Below, in pieces: positions 2,882-42,190 of a stretch of DNA of 64,000 nucleotides; the stretch's first letter is position 1, and every line of letters begins with the position of its first letter. Source of the stretch: Candidatus Saccharimonadota bacterium (lineage in GTDB: Bacteria > Patescibacteriota > Saccharimonadia > Saccharimonadales > Saccharimonadaceae); NCBI GenBank assembly GCA_017510925.1, contig JAFWLT010000006.1, forward strand, positions 98,599 through 162,598, given 5' to 3'. Below the pieces are notes generated by a model that saw only the letters and a list, made by a program, of their open reading frames with translations, did no database searches and had not been told where the DNA came from. The position numbers and the translations under genes were made by a program.

Positions 2882-5031
2882 TGCAGAATTTTTCCAAGAA
2901 TCACCCCATTTTGCACATCGTTTTAAAAAATACTTTTACGCTCTTTAATCTCGTTAACCTGATTTTGGCTCTGATGGTGGCCTTTGTGGGGAGTTTCAAA
3001 AATATGCTCTTTATTTTTATTGCCATCGCTAACACCTTGATTAGTATTATCAACGAAGTTAGAGCCTACAAAATTGTCAAAAAAATGCGCCTTATCACCG
3101 AGCAAAAACCTACGGTGATTAGAGAGGGTAAAACCATCCAAATTTTAGCCGAAGAAATAGAAAAAGGCGATATTGTGGTTTTAAGTCTAGGCGACCAAAT
3201 TTTGTATGATAGCGTACTAGAAGAGGGTGTCCTAGAAGTTAACGAATCCTTTATCACGGGCGAACAGGATAGCATCGAAAAGCACCCAGGCGACGAGCTG
3301 ATCTCTGGTAGCTTTGTAGTGGCTGGCACGGCTAAAGCAAAGGTGGAAAAAGTAGGGGAAGAAAATACTATCACCAAGCTAGAAAAAGAAGCCCATCATT
3401 TAAAAACTGCCGACTCCAAGCTATTCACCCTTATGAACAAGATCGTCAAATACATCTCTTACACTCTTATTCCAGTGGGGGCACTGCTCCTTTGGTCTAG
3501 ATTTAGGACTGAGTCCGAAACTGCCACGGCCGTAACTAGCACCGTAGCAGCTCTCATTAATATGATCCCAGAGGGCCTAATTCTTTTAACTAGCTCGGTC
3601 CTTGCTCTTGCTACCATCAGGCTATCCAAACGCAAAGTTCTTGTCCAAGACCTCTATTCTATCGAGACTCTTGCTCGCGTAGATACCATTTGTTTAGATA
3701 AAACTGGCACCCTCACCTCTGGTAATATGGTGGTTCACGATTTCATCTTGCCAAATGGCGATACGTTTAAAAAAGCTACCACGGAAGGACCCCCAGCCGA
3801 AAAATCGCTTCTAAGGCCTCTAAACGCCATTCTGAGCACTCAAATGGCCGAAAACGCAACCACTAGCGCTTTGAAGAAAGCCATGCCAAAAAACGCCAAT
3901 TTTGGCGAAATAAAGGGCATTGTGGATGTTGTCCCCTTTAGCTCAGATCGTAAATGTTCTGGTTTTAAGACTAAAGACGCCGAATATCTCATGGGCGCCA
4001 TTGAATTCCTCACGGATGACAAGGAAGTAATCAAACAGGTAAAGTCCTATGCCGGTGATTATCGCGTGATAGCCGTAGTAAAAAATAAAGAATATCTAGG
4101 TTGTATTAGATTAAAGGACGAAATCAGAAAGAACGCGCCACAAATTATCCAGTATTTTTATGATAACGACATCACACCAAAAGTTATTTCTGGCGACGAT
4201 CTAGAAACGGTCAAAACTATCGCTGAGGCAGTTGGGATTAAGGATCTAGATGGTGTAGATCTTTCTACCGTCAAAGACCTAAATTACGACAAACTCGTCA
4301 AAAATTATTCTATTTTTACCCGGGTTAAACCAGAGCAAAAGAAGTCTTTGATAAAGGCCCTCAAAAAGATGGGCAGCACCGTCGCTATGACTGGTGATGG
4401 TGTCAATGACATTCTTGCTATGAAAGAAGCTGACTGTTCTATTGCCATCGGCGAGGGCTCCGATGCTGCCCGTCGCTCGGCAAAATTAGTACTTCTAGAT
4501 TCTGATTTTGACCGTGTTCCGTCTATCATCGATGAAGGGCGTCAGTCTATCAACAACCTAGAACGTTCCACTAGCCTTTTCTTGGCTAAAACCGTCTACG
4601 CCACCACGCTGGCCGTGATTTTTGTCCTAGCGCCTCTAAGCTATCCGTTTAGCCCGATAGAAATGAGCTTACTTAGCTTCGCCTGCATTGGTTTTCCGGG
4701 CCTAGTTTTAGCACTAGAAAAAAATACAGCCAGGATCAAAGACAAATTCACCTACAACATCAAACATTATTCTGTCCCTACGGGCATTGCAGTGGCCACA
4801 GCTATGGTTATTCTTTCTATCATTGCTACCACTAATAATTTCAGTAGAGAAAAACTCACCACTCTCTCTGCCATCATCGTCTTTTCTATTGATATGATTT
4901 TGATCTATAAGGTCTCACGCCCACTCAATCTCTTTCGTGCAGCTCTTATTGCTGTCATTATCGCCATTTTCCTTTGTGCGCTCTTTATCCCATTTATTCA
5001 AAATTTCTTTGAATTTACTTTGGCTTGGTAG
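2881..5031 (+). CDS. P-type cation-transporting ATPase (HAD-IC family)
   Basis: TGE (ITGEQD), phosphorylation motif CLDKTGTLT, hinge TGDGVNDILAMKEAD, multiple TM helices. Confidence 0.9.
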   Translation: MQNFSKNHPILHIVLKNTFTLFNLVNLILALMVAFVGSFKNMLFIFIAIANTLISIINEVRAYKIVKKMRLITEQKPTVIREGKTIQILAEEIEKGDIVVLSLGDQILYDSVLEEGVLEVNESFITGEQDSIEKHPGDELISGSFVVAGTAKAKVEKVGEENTITKLEKEAHHLKTADSKLFTLMNKIVKYISYTLIPVGALLLWSRFRTESETATAVTSTVAALINMIPEGLILLTSSVLALATIRLSKRKVLVQDLYSIETLARVDTICLDKTGTLTSGNMVVHDFILPNGDTFKKATTEGPPAEKSLLRPLNAILSTQMAENATTSALKKAMPKNANFGEIKGIVDVVPFSSDRKCSGFKTKDAEYLMGAIEFLTDDKEVIKQVKSYAGDYRVIAVVKNKEYLGCIRLKDEIRKNAPQIIQYFYDNDITPKVISGDDLETVKTIAEAVGIKDLDGVDLSTVKDLNYDKLVKNYSIFTRVKPEQKKSLIKALKKMGSTVAMTGDGVNDILAMKEADCSIAIGEGSDAARRSAKLVLLDSDFDRVPSIIDEGRQSINNLERSTSLFLAKTVYATTLAVIFVLAPLSYPFSPIEMSLLSFACIGFPGLVLALEKNTARIKDKFTYNIKHYSVPTGIAVATAMVILSIIATTNNFSREKLTTLSAIIVFSIDMILIYKVSRPLNLFRAALIAVIIAIFLCALFIPFIQNFFEFTLAW

Positions 5032-10106: not shown

Positions 10107-11102
10107 ATGGAAAAACAGCTAGAAATCTACAAAATCAACAAAGGCGAAGTGATTTTTGACATAGATGTTGAAGAAGAAACGATTTGGGCAAGTATAGATC
10201 AGATAGCAACCATTTTTGATGTAACTAGAAGAAGTATAGAAATTCACCTAAAAAATGTATATGCCGATGGCGAATTAGATGAAAATCGAACCGCGAAAAA
10301 ATCTTTCGTAGTTCGTCAAGAAGGTACTCGTCAGGTTCGTCGTGAGGTAAATATGTACAACCTTGACGCTATTATCTCTGTCGGTTATCGCGTTAATTCT
10401 AAGAAAGCTACCGATTTTCGTGTCTGGTCTACAAAGGTTCTCCATAATTATCTTACTAAAGGCGTAGCTATCAACGAGAGAAGGCTCAAATCTATAGACT
10501 CCAAGAGATTAAGAGAAGTAGAAAATATGATGGGCGTTGTCAGACGCTTGATTACTCGCCAAGCCCTTGATGCCGGTGAAGCCAACGGCGTTCTCGAGGT
10601 GATTTCCAAATATTCCACCAGCTTCAAAACTTTACAAGAGTACGATGATGGGTATATTGATCTTTCTGGGATAAATAATAAAAGCTCCAAAAAAGAAAAG
10701 AGGCTTACTCCAGATTTTTGTATAGAGGTAATTGACGGTCTCAAAAAGTCCGTGAACGGCAGCGACCTCTTCGGTAAGCCTAGAAACGACGCTTTTAAAG
10801 GTTCAATTGAAAGCATTTATCAGAGCTATAACGGGAAAGATCTTTATAAAACTACTGCCGAAAAAGCTGCTCATCTTTTATATTTTGTTATTAAGGACCA
10901 TCCGTTTTATGACGGTAACAAACGTATCGGTTCGCTTCTTTTTATCGTCTTCCTCACGATGAACGGTGAAAACCTCACAAAGAACGGTGAAACCAAAATT
11001 TCAGATCGCGCTCTTACGGCGTTGGCGCTTCTTATTGCTGAGTCTAATCCATCTGAGAAAGAGCTTATTACCTCTCTTGTCAGAAAACTTCTAGAAGATT
11101 AA
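10107..11102 (+). CDS. RhuM-family protein with C-terminal Fic/Doc-type domain
   Basis: The N-terminus ([20 protein letters not shown]...[18 protein letters not shown]) is RhuM-like. The C-terminal [15 protein letters not shown] matches the Doc-type variant (NKR) of the Fic motif. Confidence 0.75.
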
Positions 11103-12394: not shown

Positions 12395-13303
12395 ATGCGT
12401 TTAGTCATTGTATATAATCCAAATTCATCCAATTACCGTCGTGTCAAAAAAGACATTCTAGACGATCGTGAAAACATTTTTAAGGATTATAAACTAGCTG
12501 AATATACCATCAAGAAAATCGGTTTTGAAAACAACGTCAAAAATCTAAAAGAAATTATCAAGGACAAAGATTTGCTCTTGGCCGTAGGTGGCGATGCCAC
12601 TGCAGCTATCACGGCTAATGCCATTATGGAGTCAAAAAAGGACGCAACTTTAGCCGTTCTCCCATATGGCAACTTCAATGACCTTGCCAGGACCCTTGGC
12701 ACTATGAAACTTAGCGACCTAAACCTTGACTCAAAACCAATCAAGCTATACCCACTAAGCATTTCTGTAGACGGTGAGTTTTGGCGCTATGCTACTTGCT
12801 ACGTCACCATTGGTATGACTGCCGAGGCCGTAGAGCTTTTTGACGAACCAAAGTTCAGAAAATATATGCAAAAAGGGCACAAATCCTCTTGGCGCTCCTA
12901 CATCGCCCTCGCTAAATGGTATTTCAAAAATCGCAAGAAGAAAATCTTCCTTCCGGAATTTACTATTAACGGCAAGGCCACGGTTAAGAAAGCCTCAGAC
13001 TATGCAGCCCTTAGTGGCAAATCTATGTGTCGTGTAATGAAGGGCAGATACGATTTCAAAAAGCCAGAAATTTTTAGAAGTAAGGCTTTAAAAACCATCA
13101 GTTTCCCAAGATTGTTTGTGTTAATGACGAGATCAATTTTACATAGAACTCCAGGTGACGAAACCAAGGGCGATATTCTAGAATTTAAAGCTCCAGCTAC
13201 CGTAGAGCTTCAAGCCGAAGGCGAGTATAAAACATTCGAAAACGTGAAGAAGATTGAGGTCAAGAAAGGTAACCAATGTCTGAAAGTGATTCAGAAAGAC
13301 TAA
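12395..13303 (+). CDS. diacylglycerol/lipid kinase catalytic-domain protein (YegS/BmrU-like)
   Basis: Start is ATG 12395 behind AGGAG. LLLAVGGDATAAI is a GGDGT-like motif and LPYGNFNDLARTLG is a GTGNDFAR-like motif. Confidence 0.65.
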   Translation: MRLVIVYNPNSSNYRRVKKDILDDRENIFKDYKLAEYTIKKIGFENNVKNLKEIIKDKDLLLAVGGDATAAITANAIMESKKDATLAVLPYGNFNDLARTLGTMKLSDLNLDSKPIKLYPLSISVDGEFWRYATCYVTIGMTAEAVELFDEPKFRKYMQKGHKSSWRSYIALAKWYFKNRKKKIFLPEFTINGKATVKKASDYAALSGKSMCRVMKGRYDFKKPEIFRSKALKTISFPRLFVLMTRSILHRTPGDETKGDILEFKAPATVELQAEGEYKTFENVKKIEVKKGNQCLKVIQKD

Positions 13304-14085
13304 AACAAGTCATATCCTATATGCAGGCCCATTGGCCAAGCGACGTCAAAGAGGAGTGGCAAGTAAAATTAGAAGAATACCCAGCCATCCTAAACCAAAT
13401 TATCAGAGATTTTACCCCTGAAAAAACTAAGAAAAGAAACCTTATTCGTATAGCCGGTCTTTCTGGCTCTGGCAAAACTTCTCAAATCCTTCCAGCCGTA
13501 GAAAAATATTGTGAAGGATCACGTTTAAACCCTGTGCTTGTGGCAGCTCGTCGTTTTGTAGAATATCATCCATATAAGAAAGAAATAGAAGAAGCATACG
13601 GGGAAGAAAACCTTCGCAAAAAGACCGACGAATTCTCTACTATTATGATGTTTTTGACCATCAATGCGCTTACTAAGCAGGGCTATGATATCATTTTAGA
13701 TGTTACTTTGCTCGCGCCAGAAATCGAGGACATTCTTCTTAATATGCTAAAAGCAAATAATTACAATTCTATGCTACTTATGATCGCTACTAGCCCAACA
13801 GTTACTGAACATTTTCTAGGTGGTCGCTCTTGGCGTCACAGCAAAGAGACAGAGCAAGAATTTATCCGTGCCACCAAAGCTGCACTAGATTTTTATGCCG
13901 AAAATGATGGTAATCTTCACCTAATTTTGTGGAGTGTGTACGATTTAGATCCAATTTATAATGGCCCAGTAAAAGACGGCCTAGAAATCTTCAAAACCTA
14001 CTCAGAAAAAACCGAGCTCCCTCCTCAAAATGACGAGGAAAGAAGGAAAGCTAAAATTCAATTTCTTTCAACACTTTGTCAGTAG
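13276..14085 (+). CDS. zeta-toxin-like / AAA_33 P-loop kinase
   Basis: Walker A GLSGSGKTS with size and layout like zeta-toxin family kinases. Overlaps the upstream gene by 28 nt. The exact start is uncertain. Confidence 0.5.
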   Translation: MSESDSERLKQVISYMQAHWPSDVKEEWQVKLEEYPAILNQIIRDFTPEKTKKRNLIRIAGLSGSGKTSQILPAVEKYCEGSRLNPVLVAARRFVEYHPYKKEIEEAYGEENLRKKTDEFSTIMMFLTINALTKQGYDIILDVTLLAPEIEDILLNMLKANNYNSMLLMIATSPTVTEHFLGGRSWRHSKETEQEFIRATKAALDFYAENDGNLHLILWSVYDLDPIYNGPVKDGLEIFKTYSEKTELPPQNDEERRKAKIQFLSTLCQ

Positions 14086-14617
14086 CTTCTTCGAGCTCTT
14101 CAATAGTGCCATTATTAAGAACGTAATAATCTGCTGCTACAATCGGGCCACCTTTTTCTAGGTTTTCGATCTCAGAACGGTCGCGTTCGCGAATAGCGGC
14201 TGCATCAAAAGCCCTACCAGGGCGAACAGCCACACGTTCGTAGCGAAGACGCTTGTCTACCACTACAGCGAGGAATGTAAGAGCCTTTGGGAATTCGTGT
14301 TTAAGTGTACAATATTCTGTCCAAGAATAAACGCCGTCGAGCACGATTCTTTTTTGTCCAGCAGCGATTAGATCTTTAACCTCAGCAATTACCTGGCGAA
14401 CTACCCAATCTTTGCCTTCTTTTTCACGGATTTCTTCACGGAATTTCTTTTCAGACTCGCCGTCTTCAGTGCGAGGAATGCCACGTTTTTCCATCTCTTT
14501 ATAAATCATCCCACCAAAATATACCTTTGGGTATCCTTTCTCGGTCAAATGATCTACGATTACAGATTTACCACTCCCACTCATCCCCACGATTGCTAAG
14601 ATTTTTACATTATCCAT
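14051..14617 (-). CDS. P-loop nucleotide kinase (dephospho-CoA kinase-like / UPF0200-like)
   Basis: GMSGSGKS Walker A at the N-terminus, then RERDRSEIENLEKGGPIVAADYYVLNNG, typical of the CoaE-like/UPF0200 family. Confidence 0.6.
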   Translation of the reverse strand: MDNVKILAIVGMSGSGKSVIVDHLTEKGYPKVYFGGMIYKEMEKRGIPRTEDGESEKKFREEIREKEGKDWVVRQVIAEVKDLIAAGQKRIVLDGVYSWTEYCTLKHEFPKALTFLAVVVDKRLRYERVAVRPGRAFDAAAIRERDRSEIENLEKGGPIVAADYYVLNNGTIEELEEATDKVLKEIEF

Positions 14618-14650: not shown

Positions 14651-15463
14651 ATGCGTAATTTTTTTACGACTGATGATCCGTTAGACAAGATTATTGAAAA
14701 AACTATGCCCGATAAAAAGGTTCTAAAAACCGAGCACATTTTAACGGGCTGGACCAATATTGTAATAGAGGTGACTACCGACAAAGGTTCGTATTTTTTC
14801 CGTTTTCCAAGAAATCCATTCTGGGCTAGAATGATTGTCAAAGATGCTGCTGTTTGCAACTTCGTAGATGGCAAAACTAGTTACTATACTCCACAAATGA
14901 AGTTGTACTACGACGACAAAAAACGTCCGTATTCTGTGCACAAAAAAATCGAGGGCTACACTCTTGGTGATCGCATTTACCATCTTTCGCACACAGCACT
15001 TACTGGCGTAGCATATGACACGGCTAAGTTTATCAAAGAACTTTCTAACATTGATATTTCTAAAGCTCCAGAAGAAGTCAAAATGCCACTCTCGGAGTTT
15101 TTGTATGAGCTCGACCACGAACACTACAAAAAACATATCGACAAAGACCACGATTATATCAAAAAGACAGAAGAGAACAAGTTGGTCCACGGCGATTTAA
15201 ATCTCGGCAATATTTTGCTCGATGAAAACGACAAAGTCATTGGCGTGATTGACTTTTGTTTTGCTGGTACTGGTAACCCACAAATGGATACAGCCCGGAT
15301 GCTTTCTCGCCCAGTTCCAGAAGAGTTTGAAAAAGCCTTCCTCGCTCAATTCATAGATACCTCCGAGGTCCCTCGTATGAAAACTGCCTGGAAGCATATC
15401 GACGCCGGCTACGCCGAACACATTCGCAGCAATTTCCCCGAAATCAATCTAAATCAACTCTAA
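14651..15463 (+). CDS. aminoglycoside/choline-kinase-type phosphotransferase (APH family)
   Basis: Catalytic loop HGDLNLGNILLD and metal-binding VIGVIDF. Confidence 0.8.
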   Translation: MRNFFTTDDPLDKIIEKTMPDKKVLKTEHILTGWTNIVIEVTTDKGSYFFRFPRNPFWARMIVKDAAVCNFVDGKTSYYTPQMKLYYDDKKRPYSVHKKIEGYTLGDRIYHLSHTALTGVAYDTAKFIKELSNIDISKAPEEVKMPLSEFLYELDHEHYKKHIDKDHDYIKKTEENKLVHGDLNLGNILLDENDKVIGVIDFCFAGTGNPQMDTARMLSRPVPEEFEKAFLAQFIDTSEVPRMKTAWKHIDAGYAEHIRSNFPEINLNQL

Positions 15464-15544
15464 TTTAATTATAAGTAGCAGGTGGGGGGTTGAACTTTTC
15501 TGTTAGGTATGCCTATAATACTCTAATTTAAAATAGGGAGTATT

Positions 15545-16504
15545 ATGCCAAAAAATATTGCAGACAAAATCTATACCATCCGTGGACAAAAAGTGATGTT
15601 AGATTATGATTTAGCAGAACTTTATGGTTACACTACCAGTGCGTTTAACCAACAAGTGAAGAATAATAAAGAAAAATTTGAAGGCGAAGATTTTATGTTT
15701 CGTCTTGCAGAAAAAGATATGTCTATAGTTTTGCTATCAAAAAATTTGACAGCAAAAATAGATGGTCGTGGTGGAGATAGAAGGTTGCCATACGCTTTTA
15801 CTGAATCGGGAATTTATATGTTGATGACCGTATTAAAAGGAGATTTAGCGACTAAACAAAGCAGAGCGCTTATTCGTACGTTTCGAGCCATGAAAGACTA
15901 CATTATCAGCCACCAATCCGTTGTTTCCAAAGTCATAGACAACACCAAAGACATTACCGAGATCAAAACCGAAATCAAACAAATCGCCAGTGAAATGACC
16001 GGTGTAGTCAAAAAATCCGAAATCTCTCCCATTCTTTTAGATTTCGCCAAAGTTGCTGAGACCAAAGAGTTCTTGATTCTAAATGGCGAGCCAGCAAGGG
16101 CCAAAGAAACTTACCAGGATATTTTTAGAAAAGCCAAAAAACGTATATATATTATAGATAATTACATCAGCATCAAGACTCTTCGCCTTCTCCAAGCTGC
16201 CAAGTCAAATATAGAAGTGATATTTTTTAGTGACAATATTGGCAATTGCTTATATGCTAGCGATGTAAAAGACTTCAAAAAGGATCGCAAAGATTTAGAA
16301 ATTAAATTTATCAGAACTAACAATGCTGTGCATGATAGGTTTATCATCGTCGATGGTGAAAAATTTTACCATTGTGGCAGCTCGTCAAAAGATGCAGGGA
16401 AGAGAATCGCCGTCATTCACGAAATCACCGACAAACAAATTGTCAAAACCATCAAAGATATCATCGTCAAAATGGCCAAGAACAAAGAGCTGATTTTAAA
16501 GTAG
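15545..16504 (+). CDS. ORF6N-domain protein fused to a PLD/HKD-like C-terminal domain (HxR variant)
   Basis: The N-terminus (IRGQKVMLDYDLAELYGYTTSAFNQQVKNNKEKF...FMFRL...PYAFTESGIYML) is an ORF6N/KilA-N-related fold. The C-terminal HDRFIIVDGEKFYHCGSSSKDAGKR resembles HxK(x)4D...GSxN with K replaced by R. SD GGGAG upstream. Confidence 0.6.
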   Translation: MPKNIADKIYTIRGQKVMLDYDLAELYGYTTSAFNQQVKNNKEKFEGEDFMFRLAEKDMSIVLLSKNLTAKIDGRGGDRRLPYAFTESGIYMLMTVLKGDLATKQSRALIRTFRAMKDYIISHQSVVSKVIDNTKDITEIKTEIKQIASEMTGVVKKSEISPILLDFAKVAETKEFLILNGEPARAKETYQDIFRKAKKRIYIIDNYISIKTLRLLQAAKSNIEVIFFSDNIGNCLYASDVKDFKKDRKDLEIKFIRTNNAVHDRFIIVDGEKFYHCGSSSKDAGKRIAVIHEITDKQIVKTIKDIIVKMAKNKELILK

Positions 16505-16513
16505 CCCTATCTG

Positions 16514-16522
16514 TGGTATAAT
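16514..16522 (+). promoter_or_regulatory. extended -10 promoter (TGgTATAAT) with no ORF behind it
   Basis: TGG (16514-16516) plus TATAAT (16517-16522). The TTG at 16528 terminates after 4 codons. Confidence 0.55.
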
Positions 16523-16528
16523 TATAGT

Positions 16529-16675
16529 TGTCCAAACTATAATTTAACGCAACAGAAAACAGCAGAATATATCTGTTGTCTATAGTGCTTAGAATCGGGC
16601 GCTGTAGGCAATAGGCACTATGTTCTGTTGTATAAGTAGTTTGGACGCTATCTACAGCGTCCGATTTTGGTTTTG
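16529..16675 (+). ncRNA. candidate structured RNA (cis-regulatory leader or sRNA) ending in an intrinsic terminator
   Basis: Nested perfect helices 16530-16539/16637-16646, 16550-16557/16623-16630, 16559-16566/16572-16579 and 16581-16588/16615-16622. Terminator stem 16643-16649/16656-16662 is followed by GATTTTGGTTTT. Confidence 0.4.
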
Positions 16676-16698
16676 TAGCATGCGTCCATTTTGCACCT

Positions 16699-16722
16699 TT
16701 CTGTTGCGAGAAAGCAACAGAA
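16699..16722 (+). promoter_or_regulatory. perfect 9-bp hairpin/inverted repeat abutting the methyltransferase start codon
   Basis: TTCTGTTGC (16699-16707), loop GAGAAA, GCAACAGAA (16714-22). The ATG lies at 16724. Confidence 0.5.
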
Positions 16723-16723
16723 C

Positions 16724-17734
16724 ATGGGAAGCAATGCGAATTTCCACAAGGCTAGCATAGTAAAAAACGATGAATTCTATACTAGGCTTGTCGATATTGA
16801 AGATGAATTAAAATATTATAAAGAGCATTTCAAAAATAAAGTAATATTTTGTAATTGTGATGACCCATATGAAAGCAACTTTTTTAAATACTTTGCAATG
16901 AATTTTAATCGCTTAGAATTAAAAAAAATAATTTGTACTAGTTATACTGGTTCACCAATTGTTGGCGAAGAATTTAGCGACTTACCACTCTTTAAAAACC
17001 TAAATAAGAGAAAAGCCTATAAGGTAGAAATAACCGAAGTCTATGATGAAAATGGCGATGGAGCCGTGGATTTATATGATATTAAACTCCTAATTAAAAA
17101 TATGAAAAATAAGATGGAACCACTACAAGGAGATGGCGACTTTCGTAGCAAAGAGTGCGTCGAGTTGTTAAAGGAAGCGGATATTGTAGTTACTAATCCA
17201 CCATTTTCGATCGCGAGAGAATATTTTATACCGTTGTTGATAAAATATAACAAAAAGTTTCTTATAATCGGAGATTTAAATTGGGTAACATATAAAAACT
17301 TTTTCCCGTTAATAAAAGACAACAAAATATGGTTTGGTCACAATTGTGTGAAAGAATTTATTCAACCGAATAAAAGTAATAAAAAATTTGGCAATAAACT
17401 TTGGTATACGAATCTTGATATTCCCAAAAGGCACGAAAAAATAACGCCATATAAAGAGTACACCCCAGAAGAATATCCAAAATATGACAATTATGACGCT
17501 ATAAACGTAGACAAGATTGCTGAGATTCCAGATAGATATTATAAACCAATGGGGGTACCTATTACTTTTCTTAACAAATACAACCCAGATCAGTTTGATA
17601 TACTTGGGATCGATAGATATATTAATGATAACCCGAATTACGGCCGCAGGTTTAAAATCGATGGTAAGGAAATATATGCAAGAATAATAATTAAACGAAA
17701 GGATCAAAATGAAAATCGAACTCCACAAAATTAA
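16724..17734 (+). CDS. N6-adenine DNA methyltransferase, EcoRI-methylase-like family
   Basis: N-terminal DEFYT motif and catalytic VVTNPPFS (NPPF). Visibly more AT-rich than its neighbours. The start is taken at ATG 16724; the track TTG at 16691 lies just upstream of the 16699-16722 hairpin. Confidence 0.75.
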   Translation: MGSNANFHKASIVKNDEFYTRLVDIEDELKYYKEHFKNKVIFCNCDDPYESNFFKYFAMNFNRLELKKIICTSYTGSPIVGEEFSDLPLFKNLNKRKAYKVEITEVYDENGDGAVDLYDIKLLIKNMKNKMEPLQGDGDFRSKECVELLKEADIVVTNPPFSIAREYFIPLLIKYNKKFLIIGDLNWVTYKNFFPLIKDNKIWFGHNCVKEFIQPNKSNKKFGNKLWYTNLDIPKRHEKITPYKEYTPEEYPKYDNYDAINVDKIAEIPDRYYKPMGVPITFLNKYNPDQFDILGIDRYINDNPNYGRRFKIDGKEIYARIIIKRKDQNENRTPQN

Positions 17735-18815
17735 AGTAAAAGATGTCTTCGCTGGGTATAAGGATTCCGACGAGGAAGGGGTTATTGGTTATGGGGGGAA
17801 ATTAGACATTCGCCCGAAATATCAGCGTAACTTTGTTTATAAAGAAAAACAGCGTGACGCCGTCATAGATACAATTCGTAAAGGTTTTCCACTTAATGTA
17901 ATGTACTGGGCGAAGAAGGAAGAAAAAGAAGGCGATTTAGAGTATGAGGTTCTTGATGGCCAACAGCGTACAATATCTTTTTGTGAATATCTTCAAGGGA
18001 ACTTTTCAATCAAAGATAATGGCAATATATACTATTTTGATAGCCTAACTGCTGACGAACGTGAAAAAATTGAGAACTATGATTTGTATATCTATATTTG
18101 TGAGGGCACAGAGAGTGAGCGCCTTGAATGGTTTAAGACTATTAACATCGCTGGCGAAAAATTGACCGACCAAGAGCTTAGAAATGCAGTTTATTCTGGC
18201 CCATGGCTCACCGATGCCAAGGGATATTTCAGCAAATCCAACTGCCCAGCCTATGGTCTTGCAGATAAATATATGGGTGGTTCACCAATTAGGCAAGAGT
18301 ATCTAGAATCAGCTCTAAAATGGATTTCAAGCGACAATATAGAAGAATATATGTCCAAGCACCAGCATGACGCCAATGCCTCCGAACTTTGGCAATATTT
18401 CCAAACCGTAATTAGCTGGGTAAAGACTATTTTTCCAAAAGAGCGCAAAGAGATGAAAGGCCTAGAATGGGGCGAATTCTATAACAAATACCACAACAAT
18501 TCTTACAATGCTACGGACCTAGAAAATCAAATCAAAGCACTCATGCAAGACGAAGATGTCACTAGTAAAAAGGGAATCTACGAATACCTACTAAACGGTG
18601 ATGAAAGAAATCTTAGCATTCGCGCTTTTACCGACAACATGAAACGCGAGGCCTATGAACGTCAAAATGGCATCTGCGCAAAATGTAAAGAACATTTTGA
18701 AATCACCGAAATGGAAGCCGACCACATCACTCCATGGAGTCAAGGTGGCAAAACCATCGCCGAAAACTGCCAGATGCTCTGCCGTGATTGTAACCGTCGT
18801 AAATCCGATAGCTAA
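17709..18815 (+). CDS. DUF262 (ParB/GmrSD N-terminal-like) - HNH endonuclease fusion
   Basis: LDGQQRT motif of DUF262. C-terminal HNH: CAKCKEHF...ADHITPWSQGG...NCQMLCRDCNRRKS. SD AAGGA upstream. Overlaps the MTase gene by 26 nt. Confidence 0.8.
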   Translation: MKIELHKIKVKDVFAGYKDSDEEGVIGYGGKLDIRPKYQRNFVYKEKQRDAVIDTIRKGFPLNVMYWAKKEEKEGDLEYEVLDGQQRTISFCEYLQGNFSIKDNGNIYYFDSLTADEREKIENYDLYIYICEGTESERLEWFKTINIAGEKLTDQELRNAVYSGPWLTDAKGYFSKSNCPAYGLADKYMGGSPIRQEYLESALKWISSDNIEEYMSKHQHDANASELWQYFQTVISWVKTIFPKERKEMKGLEWGEFYNKYHNNSYNATDLENQIKALMQDEDVTSKKGIYEYLLNGDERNLSIRAFTDNMKREAYERQNGICAKCKEHFEITEMEADHITPWSQGGKTIAENCQMLCRDCNRRKSDS

Positions 18816-18859
18816 CTATTGCCAACTCCCTCGTGATATAATTTAACAAAGGAGTAAAA

Positions 18860-19758
18860 ATGTCATCAAAGGTTTATTTTACTAAAGATATTTCGCCAGA
18901 AAGTTTAGAAAAAGTTTACAAGGCCCTGAATCTAGACATTACAAACGGTGGCAAAAACAAAGTTGGAGTTAAAGTTTCTACCGGCGAAGACGGAGCCAAG
19001 GGCTACCTCAAGCCTGAGCTTATCGGTCCATTTGTAAAATCTCTAAACGGCACGATCATCGAATGTAACACTGCCTACCCAGGCGCCAGAAACACCGCTG
19101 AGGATCATATCGAAGTCGCCAAAAACACGGCTTCACTAGCTATGCTGATGTTGACATTATGGACGCCGAAGGCGAATTTGAAATCCCTGCACCAAAAAAC
19201 AGCAAGCACCTAAAATATGATCTTATCGGTGAGAATTTCAAAAACTATGATGCCATTGTTAATCTAGCCCATGGCAAAGGCCATGCCATGGGCGGCTTTG
19301 GTGCCAATCTCAAAAATCAATCCATCGGTATTGCCTCAAGAAACGGCAAAGCCTATATTCACTCTGCCGGCAAAACCAAAAGTCCTAAGCTCTGTTGGAT
19401 TTCTAAGCACAAACAAATCGATTTTATTGAATCCATGGCCGAGGCTGCCACTGCCGTTTCTGATTACTTAAAAGAAGAAAACAAACCTATTATATATATT
19501 ACAGTAGCCAATGCACTTTCTCTAGATTGTGATTGCGATTCCAAACAAGGCGACCCGGTGATGAGCGACATCGGTATTTTCGCTTCACTAGATCCAGTCG
19601 CTAACGACCAGGCATTTATCGATGCTATCTGGGCTTCAAAAGACAAAGGAGCAGAAGACTTGAAAGAACGTATTGACACTCGCGAAGGTCGTGCCATCTT
19701 ACCTTATGCCGAAGCTCTTGGCCTTGGCTCTACCAAATACGATTTGATCGAAATCTAA
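18860..19758 (+). pseudogene. DUF362/COG2768-type protein interrupted by a 1-nt frameshift
   Basis: ORFs 18860-19213 and 19159-19758 join into one protein if one extra A is added to the A5 run at 19121-19125 (...EVAKKHGFTSYADVDIMDAEGEFEIP...). Confidence 0.7.
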
Positions 19759-22209: not shown

Positions 22210-22653
22210 ATGTCAATGAAAAAAATAATTTACAAAAATCCTAACGACGCTGAAAATTTCAGTCTCGCACGTTATGCTAAATCTTTAAATAAGTACGCCA
22301 AAGTTTCCGAAAAGGAAATCAAAGACGCACTTAAAGAATTTGACCAATACGAAACGATGCACGTTTCTTGTCTTGTAGAAGCCGGCATCAAATTAATTGA
22401 AAAACACGGCACCAAAAAAGCTGCCAAAGAATACTTTGAAGCTCACGCCGAATATTTTGACGAAGGCAAATTTGAGAGACTTCGCCGTATTACTGGCTAT
22501 CTCGTAGGTACTCTAGATCGCTGGAACGATGCTAAAAAAGCAGAAGAGGCAGCTCGTGTTAAACACTCTGTTAACTCTGCCGTAGACGACGCTACTCGCT
22601 TAGTGATGTTAGAAACTCAAGCGATGGACCACAACATCGCTTACGCACAATAA
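22210..22653 (+). CDS. stand-alone protein with NrdD-type glycyl-radical C-terminal motif (147 aa)
   Basis: RRITGYLVGTLDRWNDAKKAEEAARVKH fits the class III RNR C-terminal pattern R-[IV]-x-G-Y-L...[FW]N-x-[AG]K-x-x-E...RV[KR]H. No catalytic barrel and no CxxC ribbon are present. Confidence 0.6.
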   Translation: MSMKKIIYKNPNDAENFSLARYAKSLNKYAKVSEKEIKDALKEFDQYETMHVSCLVEAGIKLIEKHGTKKAAKEYFEAHAEYFDEGKFERLRRITGYLVGTLDRWNDAKKAEEAARVKHSVNSAVDDATRLVMLETQAMDHNIAYAQ

Positions 22654-22752
22654 AAAAATAAATCTTGGGGCATCAAGCAAAAATCTATGATTTTTGCGCG
22701 CAGAGGTGGAGCGAGGCGAAAGCCTCGCGTAACCCCCAAGATTTATTTTTTT
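22652..22752. repeat. 101-bp compound hairpin with perfect 19-bp terminal inverted repeats
   Basis: AAAAAAATAAATCTTGGGG (22652-22670) pairs with CCCCAAGATTTATTTTTTT (22734-22752). Inner hairpins are GCAAAAATC/GATTTTTGC (22677-22697) and GCGAGGC-GAAA-GCCTCGC (22711-22728). Confidence 0.6.
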
Positions 22753-22782
22753 GTTGTATAATAAGAGTAGTTATGCCAGAGC

Positions 22783-23615
22783 TTCCAGAAGTAGAAACTA
22801 TCAGGCGTGGGTTATCAAAATTTATTGTAAAAGACAAGATCAAAAAGACTACGATTTTGTGCGCTAAGTCTTTTCAGGGTAAGCCTGAGATAGCCAAAGT
22901 CAAAGACATCAGACGCTTTGGCAAAGCATTAATTATAGATTTAGATAACGGCAAATCTTTGATGATTCATCTCAGAATGACTGGTCAATTGATTTATGAT
23001 GGCAAAGAACGTTATGCTGCCGGCCACCCAAGCGAAAACTTTGTGGCTGAGCTCCCCAACAAGCAAACTCGTGTAATTTTTGAGCTAGAAAACGGCACAC
23101 TTTATTTTAACGATCAACGAAAATTTGGGTTTATCAAAGTTTTAGACACTACAGAAGTAGAAAACGACCCATTTATCAAAAAGTTAGCCAAAGAACCTTG
23201 GCAAATGAAAGAAGAAGAATTTTACGAAAAATTGCAAAAACATACTACTTCAATTAAAGCCACCATTCTAGATCAAACTATTATCGCAGGCCTTGGCAAT
23301 ATTTACGCTGATGAGGCTTTATTTAAAGCCAAAATTCACCCAAAGACCAAAGCCAATAAACTCACCAAAAAACAGGCAGAAGATTTACTAGAAGCAGCTA
23401 AATATGTGATGGAAAAATCTATAGAATCCGGGGGCTCAACTTTAAAAGATTATAAAAAAGCCGATGGGACCAAAGGCGACTATCTAGACAAATTTGCCCA
23501 GGTGTTTAATAGAACGAATCAAGAATGCCCACGCTGTGGTGCAAAGATAGTAAAAATTAGAGTGGCAGGAAGAGGTACTCATATTTGCCCAAACTGTCAA
23601 AAGGAGAGGGAATGA
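22783..23615 (+). CDS. mutM: formamidopyrimidine-DNA glycosylase (Fpg/MutM)
   Basis: MPELPEVE N-terminus; H2TH; C-terminal zinc finger CPRCGAKI...CPNCQ. The start is set at ATG 22783. Confidence 0.9.
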
Positions 23616-40545: not shown

Positions 40546-42051
40546 ATGAAAAAACTCCAAATTAGAAAACTATTAGCAGCTGCGTTTCTCGCAATTTTGC
40601 CACTTGCAAATGTTGCCGGAGCTAATGCAGCAGAACCAGTAGAGACCCCGTGGGGGCCAGAGCGTAAGACATTTACCTGGGACAACCCAGCTACTTATGC
40701 TACGTTCAACTCCATTACCGATAACCCTGGTATTGGCGATGAGCGTGATTTCGTACGTATCCGTGAAATTAATGATCACGATACTTACGGCGACGAAGTG
40801 ACCCTCGAAGCTGGTCACACTTATGAAGTGTATATTTACTATCACAACAACGCTGACGGCCACGAAGTTGGTAAAACTGCTGTCGGTATCGCCGATGGTG
40901 CAGCCGTTAAATCCAGCTTCCCAGCTACTGTCAAAAAAGGCGAAAAAGCTACCGTTACTGGTAAAATCTTCGCATCAGATACCGACCCACTAGAAGTTTG
41001 GGATGGTGCCTATATGATGCCATCAGAAGATCTCTATCTTCGCTATGTTCCAGGCACTGCTATTATTCACAACGGTGGTGAACTTAACGGTAAAAATGTT
41101 GGCCCGGATTATCTATTTGGTGAAGGTGCCCTCCTTGGCTACAACCAATTCTCAGGTATCCTTCCTGGCTGTAACCAATATGCCGGTTATATCACTTATC
41201 AAATCTTCGCTGATCAACCAGGCTTCAGCATTCAAAAATCTATCGTAGGCGAGGCAAATACCTTCAAGGCTGGTGACGAAATCACCTTCAAGGTTCGTTA
41301 CGACAACACTGGCACTATGGACCAAATGAATGTAGTAGTAAAAGACAATATTCCAGAAGGTCTTACTTATATTCCAGGTAGCGCAATGCTTTACAATAAT
41401 AACCTCACCGAAGGCAAAGCCGTAAATGATGATATCATTTCCGAAAATGGTATGAATATCGGCGATTATGCCGGTGGTAGTGGTTGGGCAGAAGTAACCT
41501 ACAAAGCCAAAGTTAACAGCGATGAAAAATGTGCTGGCGAACTAACTAACGAAGTAACCGTATCAACCACGGATGGCAACAAAACTTCAAGTGTTAAAAT
41601 TGTGATCGAAGGGGAAGATTGTACCCCAACTCCTCCACCAGAAACTCCAAAGGAAATTGTTAAAACCGGTCCAATCGAGATCGTAATGGCAGTAATTATT
41701 ATCCTTGGCATCGGTGCCGGTGGCTTCTACTTCTATCGCACTCGTCGTGCACTCAAAACTGTAAAGAGCGCAGTAAGTGGCCCAGAAGGTGGCGCTGAAC
41801 CAATCGCTCCAGAAGCTCCAAGTGCACCAGTAAATCCAGTTGCGCCTGTAAACCCAATTGCTCCAGCAGAACCACAGGCTCCAGAAGCCCCAGCAGCTCC
41901 AGCAGAGCCAGAAGCTCCAGTAGTTCCACAAGCTCCAACTGAGCCAACTGGTTTCTCGGCACCAGTAAATCCAATCGCTCCACAGGCTCCACAAGCTCCA
42001 ACCGAGCCACAAAGCCCAGAGCAAACCCCACCAACCACACCAATGGCGTAG
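40546..42051 (+). CDS. surface protein: signal peptide, adhesin-like beta domains (DUF11-type repeat), KTG-TM-RTRR anchor, P/A-rich tail
   Basis: Signal peptide ...NVAGANAAEP; FKAGDEITFKVRYDNTGTMDQMNVVVKDNIPEGLTYIPGS (DUF11-like); EIVKTGPIEIVMAVIIILGIGAGGFYFYRTRR; then ~90 aa of AP/PQ repeats. Confidence 0.7.
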   Translation: MKKLQIRKLLAAAFLAILPLANVAGANAAEPVETPWGPERKTFTWDNPATYATFNSITDNPGIGDERDFVRIREINDHDTYGDEVTLEAGHTYEVYIYYHNNADGHEVGKTAVGIADGAAVKSSFPATVKKGEKATVTGKIFASDTDPLEVWDGAYMMPSEDLYLRYVPGTAIIHNGGELNGKNVGPDYLFGEGALLGYNQFSGILPGCNQYAGYITYQIFADQPGFSIQKSIVGEANTFKAGDEITFKVRYDNTGTMDQMNVVVKDNIPEGLTYIPGSAMLYNNNLTEGKAVNDDIISENGMNIGDYAGGSGWAEVTYKAKVNSDEKCAGELTNEVTVSTTDGNKTSSVKIVIEGEDCTPTPPPETPKEIVKTGPIEIVMAVIIILGIGAGGFYFYRTRRALKTVKSAVSGPEGGAEPIAPEAPSAPVNPVAPVNPIAPAEPQAPEAPAAPAEPEAPVVPQAPTEPTGFSAPVNPIAPQAPQAPTEPQSPEQTPPTTPMA

Positions 42052-42061
42052 GGAACTAAAC

Positions 42062-42097
42062 AAAAAATCTGCGAGAATCACCTCGCAGATTTTTGTT
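42062..42097 (+). terminator. rho-independent terminator
   Basis: AAAAAATCTGCGAG-AATCAC-CTCGCAGATTTTTG. Confidence 0.85.
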
Positions 42098-42190
42098 TAA
42101 CCATAAGCAGGTGGTAGGGGGTTGATTTTCAAATTTTGCTATGCTACAAAGGCCTCGGGTGGCGTTCATTTATACTATCTATTCCATCTC

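Follow-up and report, generated by a model that had tools for sequence, protein, structure and literature searches.

A widespread, probable type II restriction-modification pair behind a conserved structured leader, with a facultative ORF6N gene, in a Saccharibacteria genome

Orthodox type II restriction-modification (R-M) systems that combine an HNH nuclease with a separate N6-adenine methylase, such as KpnI or NlaIII, consist of separate methylase (M) and restriction endonuclease (R) genes on the same strand, with a (D/N)PP(Y/F) motif in the methylase and a beta-beta-alpha-metal HNH fold in the nuclease, and they are mobile. Their control is usually ascribed to controller (C) proteins, methylase autoregulation or antisense RNA, and the position directly upstream of the methylase gene is the classical site of type II controller proteins. 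A second group, GmrSD, BrxU and SspE, carries an N-terminal DUF262 domain with a DGQQR motif and a C-terminal His-metal nuclease; GmrSD-type enzymes typically have a DUF1524 domain and are solitary, with no cognate methylase. Here we analyzed a three-gene islet in a 64-kb stretch (the window) of contig JAFWLT010000006.1 from a Candidatus Saccharimonadota bacterium; its neighboring genes and closest homologs likewise assign it to Candidatus Saccharibacteria. As the original prediction, made from the sequence alone, had described, three open reading frames (ORFs) lie next to each other on one strand, at 15545-16504 (319 aa), 16724-17734 (336 aa), and 17709-18815 (368 aa), and they code for an ORF6N-PLD-like protein, an EcoRI-family methylase, and a DUF262-HNH nuclease. 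We consider it likely that the islet holds an orthodox type II R-M operon with its own structured leader and, beside it, a separate and facultative first gene. As a gene pair, the R-M system is routine; the novelty lies in its conserved structured leader and in the fact that a common R-M family is apparently uncharacterized biochemically.

The product of the methylase gene (16724-17734, plus strand) is an EcoRI-family N6-adenine DNA methyltransferase. It matches the Pfam family PF13651, EcoRI_methylase, over profile positions 1-345 of 345 (E 8.6e-114) and the PADLOC MTase_II profile PDLC03297 over its full length (E 6.8e-103), and its NPPF at aa 158-161, counted from the ATG, fits the amino-methyltransferase motif. 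The ORF opens mechanically at a TTG at 16691; we corrected the start to the ATG at 16724, because gene callers on near-identical contigs pick this ATG and because the conserved leader described below stops exactly at the first downstream start codon, even where the cargo differs. The codon at the 3' end of this leader is ATG in three lineages and GTG in L112 (the loci compared here are labeled L001-L112). At L001 position 6872 (leader types B and C, see below), the codon aligned with the methylase start reads ATA and follows, at a distance of 4 nt, an AGGAGG partly enclosed in a hairpin. This ATA may represent an uncommon start codon, or the start may have been set wrongly; the GTG of L112 stands at the equivalent place.

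The nuclease gene (17709-18815, plus strand) codes for a DUF262 (ParB/Srx-like)-HNH restriction endonuclease, with Pfam matches to GmrSD_N (DUF262; E 4.8e-21) and HNH (E 2.6e-14; C-terminal domain PF01844/PF14279). DGQQR lies at aa 83-87, and the HNH domain spans aa 323-367, with CxxC at 323-326 and 358-361, DH at 338-339, and N353. All motifs quoted in the original prediction (NPPF, DGQQR, HNH, and HDRFIIVD...GSSS in the first gene) could be located in the translated proteins. In 14 nuclease sequences from different phyla, the RPxxQR, DGQQRT, NIAGE, and HNH residues are invariant. The PADLOC REase_II profile PDLC03418 matches the nuclease over profile positions 1-371 of 372 (E 9e-151, 500 bits), whereas NsnA, PD-T4-2_A, HEC-05, PtuB, and mREase_IV give at most 91 bits. 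PADLOC's R-M profiles presumably derive from REBASE reference enzymes. Full-length matches of both proteins to catalogued type II profiles are an outcome that the original prediction had listed as speaking against it. The AlphaFold2 (AF2) model of the nuclease has a predicted local distance difference test score (pLDDT) of 77.7, and among solved structures it comes closest to BrxU (E 2.4e-4), to the CTPase domains of ParB/Noc, and to the isolated Gme HNH nuclease, a nickase; no solved type II enzyme with a DUF262-HNH architecture appeared among its structural or sequence matches. In sequence searches of the PDB, the sole match of the nuclease was an isolated HNH domain, the methylase had no match, and the ORF6N protein had nothing significant.

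A further argument for a type II system comes from the company that the nuclease keeps. Among 185,579 species genomes (one genome per species), we found at least 593 tblastn-confirmed relatives of the nuclease, and neighborhoods were counted for the best 80 of them, with nuclease identities of 59-80%. These 80 come from Saccharibacteria, other Patescibacteria, Bacteroidota, Firmicutes, Proteobacteria, Campylobacterota, Spirochaetes, Cyanobacteria, Acidobacteriota, Verrucomicrobiota, and several archaea. An EcoRI-family methylase gene is found on the nuclease strand in 78 of the 80 loci, which are all of the assessable ones, as the other two end at a contig edge. It is directly adjacent to the nuclease gene (within 300 nt) in 67 loci and 0.4-7.7 kb upstream in 11, and overlapping or abutting M-R junctions recur among the relatives. 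In the window, the junction is the 26-nt overlap that had been predicted (17709-17734, plus strand), from which we infer translational coupling. The pair is also present on plasmids, where it is annotated as a "DUF262 domain-containing protein" beside an "adenine-specific methyltransferase EcoRI family protein". As the methylase is co-inherited in 78 of 78 assessable loci, we place the nuclease in type II and not with the solitary type IV enzymes. Judged by sequence, methylase and nuclease form one mobile module that has spread through bacteria, archaea, and plasmids, and this module belongs to an already catalogued, widespread type II R-M family that defense-finding tools already call type II R-M. 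The neighborhood check proposed in the original prediction thus favors the first of its two alternatives, a type II-like system with a DUF262-HNH nuclease and a cognate methylase; no evidence for the second, a more complex self/non-self logic, was found in this analysis.

Five near-identical contigs (L107, L109, L110, L108, and L111) vary in their methylase gene, which lies upstream of the nuclease at 3501 or 2752 (L107, L109, and L110 versus L108 and L111). It is intact (467 aa) in two records and fragmented in three (342, 60, and 59 aa), with the nuclease intact. This breakage could be phase variation, decay, or an assembly or sequencing error.

The nuclease can be compared with both of the groups described above. 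Like GmrSD, BrxU, and SspE, it has an N-terminal DUF262 domain with DGQQR and a C-terminal His-metal nuclease, and BrxU is its best structural match. Unlike them, it has a cognate methylase in every assessable locus and a PF01844 HNH domain instead of DUF1524, for which Pfam gave no match in the nuclease; BrxU is also longer, at 557-580 aa in the matched structures versus 368 aa here. It looks like a GmrSD relative, yet one that appears to behave genetically as a type II endonuclease with a cognate methylase. With orthodox type II systems, the pair shares the separate same-strand M and R genes, the methylase motif, the HNH nuclease, and mobility, and some relatives have small helix-turn-helix (HTH) controller genes upstream. 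An HTH_3 gene (L057 and L011) or an AbrB/MazE-like gene (L028) is found directly upstream of the methylase gene. The differences are the N-terminal ParB/DUF262 domain of about 160 aa, whose DGQQR suggests nucleotide binding, and the structured RNA leader that Saccharibacteria and some Bacteroidota appear to use in place of a C protein. The family pairs a domain of nucleotide-binding type with an HNH nuclease in a very widespread, methylase-coupled enzyme. In the mechanism that we propose, the methylase would methylate an adenine in its target sequence and protect the host DNA, and the nuclease would cut unmethylated incoming DNA, methylation presumably blocking cleavage. The ParB/DUF262-like N-terminal domain would probably bind a nucleotide, and the HNH zinc-finger domain would do the cutting. 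The M-then-R order, with its overlap, would couple synthesis of the nuclease to that of the methylase.

The second component is the leader, located between the ORF6N stop codon and the methylase ATG (16495-16723, about 220-226 nt). It folds at -96 kcal/mol (z -9.0) and contains the most stable 150-nt fold in the 64 kb, both strands scanned; the structured RNA of the original prediction is real. In a comparison with Rfam 15, it reached no family at the gathering threshold (best match E 0.15, 24 bits versus a threshold of 56), and a search at E <=10 gave no credible family; on the whole window, Rfam found only two tRNAs. Besides type W of the window and its variants W2 and W3 (W3 in L107-L111), we distinguished leader types A (L099), B (L002), C (L001, L003, L004, L102, and L104), and D (L012 and L024).

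A consensus scan predicts the promoter of the leader and R-M operon at 16495-16522 (plus strand), as TTTAAA-16-TG-TATAAT with an extended -10 box. A perfect 10-bp inverted repeat, AATTATAGTT-5-AACTATAATT (16520-16544), lies over the -10 box and the 5' strand of the structure that follows, and could be either a DNA operator or a competitor hairpin in transcripts arriving from upstream; an equivalent repeat, ATTAAATTG/CAATTTAAT, is found in types A, B, and C. A rod-like hairpin of 117 nt (16530-16646, plus strand), derived from folding and covariation, begins at the predicted transcription start, and its closing helix P1 pairs 16530-16540 with 16636-16646. The minimum free energy of this rod is -52.4 kcal/mol on the plus strand versus -31.3 kcal/mol on the minus strand, and it contains 10 G-U pairs. 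A terminator scan predicts an intrinsic terminator, T1, at 16643-16674 (plus strand), made of GGACGCT-ATCTAC-AGCGTCC followed by GATTTTGGTTTT, and its 5' strand has GGAC in common with the 3' strand of P1. RNAalifold also gives an alternative helix that competes with T1 (16647-16683, plus strand; 16647-16656 with 16674-16683). A last hairpin, TTCTGTTGC-GAGAAA-GCAACAGAA (16699-16722, plus strand), seen in the fold and by RNAalifold, has a purine-rich loop, ends 1 nt before the methylase ATG, and probably serves translational control. We rejected a four-way-junction fold of the rod, as the variation among W, W2, and W3 fits a simple rod better, and dropped a small ORF across the terminator region that is not conserved between leader types.

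The leader is better conserved than the genes around it. The block 16490-16740 is 99.6% identical in L083, although the genomes themselves are only about 75-78% identical, and identity falls to 70-85% within about 20 nt on either side (63% in the methylase gene, 74% in the nuclease gene, and 63-79% across the flanks). The same leader sequence stands ahead of different cargo in L096 and L112, and copies with one or two changes occur in four further metagenomes. A BLAST search of the leader against the window and all loci returned type W copies only, with no second copy elsewhere; an exact-pattern scan of viral contigs found none, and a metagenome scan for further copies gave two AT-rich chance matches.

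Saccharibacteria loci that lack an ORF6N gene have leaders unrelated in sequence with the same architecture, and type A (L099) has an ORF6N gene upstream. In ten leaders of four unrelated sequence types, without exception, the rod starts 6-7 nt downstream of the -10 box, and its 5' end forms P1 with a segment abutting the terminator. P1 is fully compensated between types (GTCCAAACTA / TAGTTTGGAC; GTCAATTAC / GTAATTGAC; GTCTTAAATCAATTT / AAATTGATTTAAGAC; GCTACAACTTTTT / AAAAAGTTGTAGC). Because of G-U pairs, the sense-strand fold is the more stable one in all ten, with a margin of 1-21 kcal/mol. For the rod, RNAalifold detects nine one-sided changes that preserve the structure among W, W2, and W3; for the alternative helix, it detects three two-sided changes between W and W3. 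By our reading of the alignment, position 16647 changes from G to A in W3, and both of its possible partners, one in the 3' strand of T1 and one in the alternative helix, show the corresponding C-to-U change; of these two pairings, RNAalifold scored only that in the alternative helix. The overlap of T1 with P1, 3-4 nt, is also present in types A, B, and D, and a hairpin abutting the start codon or the Shine-Dalgarno sequence is found in Bacteroidota leaders as well as in types B, C, and D. More widely, strong structure upstream of the methylase gene (z <=-4.5) is found in 15 of 68 assessable loci, including those of the Bacteroidota L021, L049, L018, L032, and L008, and the outer helix of the Bacteroidota leaders covaries between L021 and L008.

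From a regulatory perspective, the Saccharibacteria operon would be transcribed from its own extended -10 promoter through a structured leader of about 195 nt. The transcript would begin at the base of the 117-nt rod, whose closing helix has four bases in common with the terminator. Such a leader would keep expression of a toxic operon low or conditional, probably through transcription attenuation and masked translation initiation, and it would functionally replace a C protein; other lineages have a small HTH- or AbrB-type controller gene at this position. It shares with attenuation leaders and riboswitches a promoter-proximal structured RNA, a helix overlapping an intrinsic terminator, and a hairpin at the ribosome-binding site, and differs from them in having no Rfam match and in its rod, which is long and mostly helical instead of a compact aptamer. 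With C-protein control, it shares the position that controller proteins hold in related loci. R-M control through such a 5' leader, conserved and covarying, with its terminator and its hairpin near the start codon, would be an RNA-based route distinct from the usual ones. A role for the leader as an antisense regulator of the operon or of the ORF6N gene was rejected, its best duplex energies being no better than those of shuffled leaders.

The first gene (15545-16504, plus strand) codes for the ORF6N-PLD-like protein and has a putative sigma-70-like promoter at 15490-15519 (plus strand), a consensus match of TTGAAC-18-TATAAT with 10 of 12 positions. The protein matches Pfam ORF6N at aa 8-96 (E 1.5e-29) and, practically over its full length, the PADLOC profile PDLC04869 of the candidate system PDC-S05 (E 5.7e-93, aa 3-308 versus profile positions 15-301 of 306). 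The DNA-binding ORF6N domain is followed by a variable repetitive linker, a long helix, and a PLD-fold C-terminal domain (aa ~175-319); in the AF2 model, this last domain has a pLDDT of about 85-90 and the linker is poor. The best whole-model Foldseek matches are the TrmBL2/TrmB regulators (E 1.6e-6 to 2e-4), which likewise have a DNA-binding N-terminal domain, a long helix, and a PLD-fold C-terminal domain, with a winged helix instead of ORF6N. Further matches are PLD, FAM83 DUF1669, NucT, Zucchini, and Nuc, with E values for nucleases and PLD of 1.6e-5 to 8e-4 and target-normalized TM scores of 0.47-0.57 for NucT, Zucchini, and Nuc and 0.25 for the two-domain PLD 7e0m. The PLD motif takes a variant form, HDRFIIVD (aa 263-270)...GSSSKD (aa 278-283), encoded at 16331-16393 (plus strand): the canonical HKD pattern, H-x-K-x4-D-x6-G-S-x-N, is replaced by H-D-R-x4-D...G-x-S-x-K-D, and this H-x-R-x4-D...G-x-S-x-K-D also separates the protein from Nuc, NucT, and Zucchini, with which it shares the single-domain PLD fold. 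Residues H263, D264, R265, D270, S280, K282, and D283, as well as the N-terminal domain, are invariant among 38 homologs with 51-90% identity. The proposed PLD-like domain with Arg in place of the HKD lysine is therefore confirmed both as a fold, by AF2 and Foldseek, and as a motif, by the alignment. PDC-S05 comprises many heterogeneous profiles that mainly have an N-terminal ORF6N/RhuM-type domain in common. One RhuM-type member is reported to lower the plating of T7, T5, and T4 and to protect E. coli; it has a RhuM domain and not the ORF6N plus PLD-like architecture (bioRxiv 10.1101/2024.09.26.614923).

The original prediction had treated the three genes as a combination, and the core of it that stands is the M-R pair. 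None of the 80 cross-phylum loci that carry the pair turned up a full-length ORF6N-PLD relative, which speaks against the triad as a unit. More distant ORF6N-PLD homologs (50-58% identity) are found alone: pnp and lepA flank the gene in L085, and it adjoins the his operon in L091 and sufBD in L093. L089 has a homolog in the syntenic slot of the window (APH-like kinase...polA) without the R-M pair. What also stands is that the association recurs, and the ORF6N gene is not simply an unrelated neighbor, the outcome that the original prediction had named as refuting it. The close subclade, at 63% identity or more, has six sampled members at three genomic sites with two kinds of cargo, and all six are followed, about 200-290 nt downstream, by a leader (W-type, or A-type in L099) and then R-M-type cargo. 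Four of the six carry the same M-R pair: the window/L081, L083 at the site of the window, L098 after gyrBA, and L099 beside an ABC transporter. In L096 and L112, at the site of the window, the ORF6N gene and leader precede a split type IIG-like cargo. Outside this subclade, in other phyla, related genes of "anti-repressor type" are embedded in or beside the M-R operon of six other loci, with ORF6N in L059 and L016, RhuM in L059 and L028, and Bro-N in L044, L051, and L052; further loci have AIPR, OLD-family, or nucleotidyltransferase genes embedded in this way. A recurrent but facultative pattern is usual for accessory genes lodged in R-M operons or defense islands. We infer that the ORF6N gene is a partner of this kind, and neither a core component nor needed for R-M.

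Two of these loci are of interest in themselves. In a Spirochaetia operon of overlapping genes (L059, 2418-9089), the module is much expanded, in the order EcoRI-family methylase, RhuM, second EcoRI-family methylase, OLD-family ATPase-TOPRIM, ORF6N (207 aa), and DUF262-HNH nuclease. In a Lentisphaeria locus (L016, 5421-9086), genes for a C5 methylase and an NgoFVII-type PLD restriction enzyme, together with a short ORF6N-like gene, stand ahead of the one for the DUF262-HNH nuclease, and the sole EcoRI-family methylase match is a fragment 7.7 kb upstream, at the locus edge.

It is possible, although we think it unlikely, that all three genes work together with the leader as a single system, with the ORF6N-PLD protein as its regulator or sensor in trans. 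By binding either the leader RNA or the inverted repeat at the -10 box, this protein would gate expression of the R-M cargo, and it could also add a second, Abi-like effector arm. The resemblance to TrmBL2/TrmB, the position of the inverted repeat on a promoter directly 3' of the ORF6N gene, and the junction between ORF6N stop codon and promoter, which is conserved even between leader types W and A, all point in this direction, as do the six of six close members with leader and cargo at three sites and the six loci with embedded ORF6N, RhuM, or Bro-N genes. However, the leader architecture exists without an ORF6N gene in L001-L004, L102, and L107-L111, and so does the inverted repeat, except in W3. 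The missing triad in the 80 loci and the solitary homologs beside housekeeping genes also argue against it, and the invariance of the H/R/D/S/K/D residues is more in keeping with catalysis or ligand binding than with a plain repressor.

Several points weigh against the reading of an orthodox type II operon with its own leader and a separate first gene. Our literature searches found no paper characterizing the DUF262-HNH/EcoRI-family methylase pair, no biochemical or structural study of the methylase-coupled DUF262-HNH family, and nothing specific on a characterized DUF262-HNH type II enzyme, on ORF6N together with R-M, or on a Saccharibacteria methylome. Palindrome avoidance gave no shared target: apart from GATC and GGCC, which are commonly avoided, no 4- or 6-mer was underrepresented consistently among the carriers. 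The transcription start of the leader, its termination, and the read-through are all predicted from sequence, and the one metatranscriptome found to contain related words showed zero coverage of the leader. The P1/T1 overlap of 3-4 nt in types W, A, B, and D may be too small for a true switch, type C has an intermediate hairpin instead of an overlapping terminator, and the inverted repeat is missing in W3. The alternative helix segment is deleted in L112, and this helix is therefore not essential. Finally, the first gene may not be independent, given that all six close members, at three sites, precede a leader and R-M cargo.

A more far-reaching proposal, which we regard as doubtful, is that the leader is an undescribed class of regulatory RNA that travels with mobile type II R-M systems in Saccharibacteria and Bacteroidota and serves as a switch that responds to an effector; read-through would be set either by the ORF6N-PLD-like protein or by a metabolite, S-adenosylmethionine (SAM) for instance. 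If this were true, it would be an RNA-gated R-M system with a PLD-fold sensor or effector.

The intergenic element could also be something other than a cis-acting leader, either an independent small RNA that spans the stretch between start site and T1 or a DNA recombination junction for cargo swaps, but we judge this quite improbable. The element does come with a promoter of its own, followed after about 145 nt by a terminator, and it is nearly identical across lineages with flanking genes at 63-79%. Different cargo is fused exactly at its 3' end, different upstream genes meet its promoter, and a serine recombinase adjoins it in L002. Nevertheless, by eye, no other promoter-like site is seen in the 60 nt between T1 and the ATG (a reading of the sequence with no formal scan), and the start-codon hairpin belongs to the conserved block. 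The G-U-rich, sense-strand-specific folding suggests RNA rather than DNA, complementarity to the operon does not exceed that of shuffled controls, and no second copy exists in the window or the loci. The remaining explanation, a modification-dependent type IV enzyme of GmrSD/BrxU/SspE kind beside an unrelated or orphan methylase, is very improbable: the GmrSD_N match, BrxU, a type IV enzyme, as nearest solved structure, and the weak NsnA, PD-T4-2_A, and mREase_IV matches favor it, but the same-strand methylase is present in all assessable loci across phyla, mostly overlapping or abutting the nuclease gene, REase_II is by far the best profile, the nuclease domain is a classical PF01844 HNH and not DUF1524, and an m6A-directed enzyme beside an m6A methylase would, in our judgment, be self-toxic.

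Knowing the R-M system of the window and its target would also help to overcome transformation barriers in Saccharibacteria genetics. CATG is strongly depleted in the 64-kb window, with 45 observed versus 157 expected (ratio 0.29, z -9.0), far beyond other 4-mer palindromes. It is not depleted in L083, L096, and L098 (ratios 0.93-1.09), described as carriers of the same system, and the depletion is therefore not ascribed to this R-M system. It would instead point to another system specific for CATG that this lineage has now or had earlier.

Concerning its surroundings, the islet had been proposed to be horizontally acquired and its methylase gene to be AT-rich. The methylase gene has a GC content of 0.311, versus 0.405 in the nuclease gene, 0.362 in the ORF6N gene, and 0.417 in the window as a whole. 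Related genomes differ in what lies between the APH-like kinase gene and polA, which supports acquisition; this interval is a variable hotspot anchored by the ORF6N gene, at which R-M cargo is exchanged. The APH-family kinase gene (14651-15463) adjoins a zeta-toxin-family kinase gene (13276-14085, plus strand) and a convergent AAA_18 nucleotide kinase-like gene (14051-14617, minus strand), and this synteny is kept in L083, L089, and L096; the zeta-like protein has no PADLOC match. Between ftsK and a sigma-70 gene, 4.4 kb upstream of the islet, lies a gene for a RhuM-N plus Fic protein (10107-11102, plus strand), conserved in L081-L083. It matches the PADLOC candidate PDC-S23 over its full length (E 1e-114), as well as many PDC-S05 profiles, and is a second defense candidate of "anti-repressor type".

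Two further folds stood out in the sliding scan. The second most stable (22621-22770, plus strand, z -6.0; 22600-22800 at -72 kcal/mol, z -8.3), between a small NrdD-like ORF and fpg, is an A/U-flanked palindromic hairpin of ~110 nt with two inner hairpins, followed by TTGTATAAT, and a related 60-nt piece occurs elsewhere in L083 (6973-7033). The third (41966-42115, minus strand, z -4.8; 41940-42140 at -80.6 kcal/mol) includes a terminator-like hairpin. Directly 3' of the nuclease gene, a DUF362 gene is split into two overlapping ORFs (18860-19213 and 19159-19758, plus strand), the second of which matches profile positions 72-200 of 200. This split suggests a frameshifted gene, which may belong to the variable region, since it is not found at the same position in L083.

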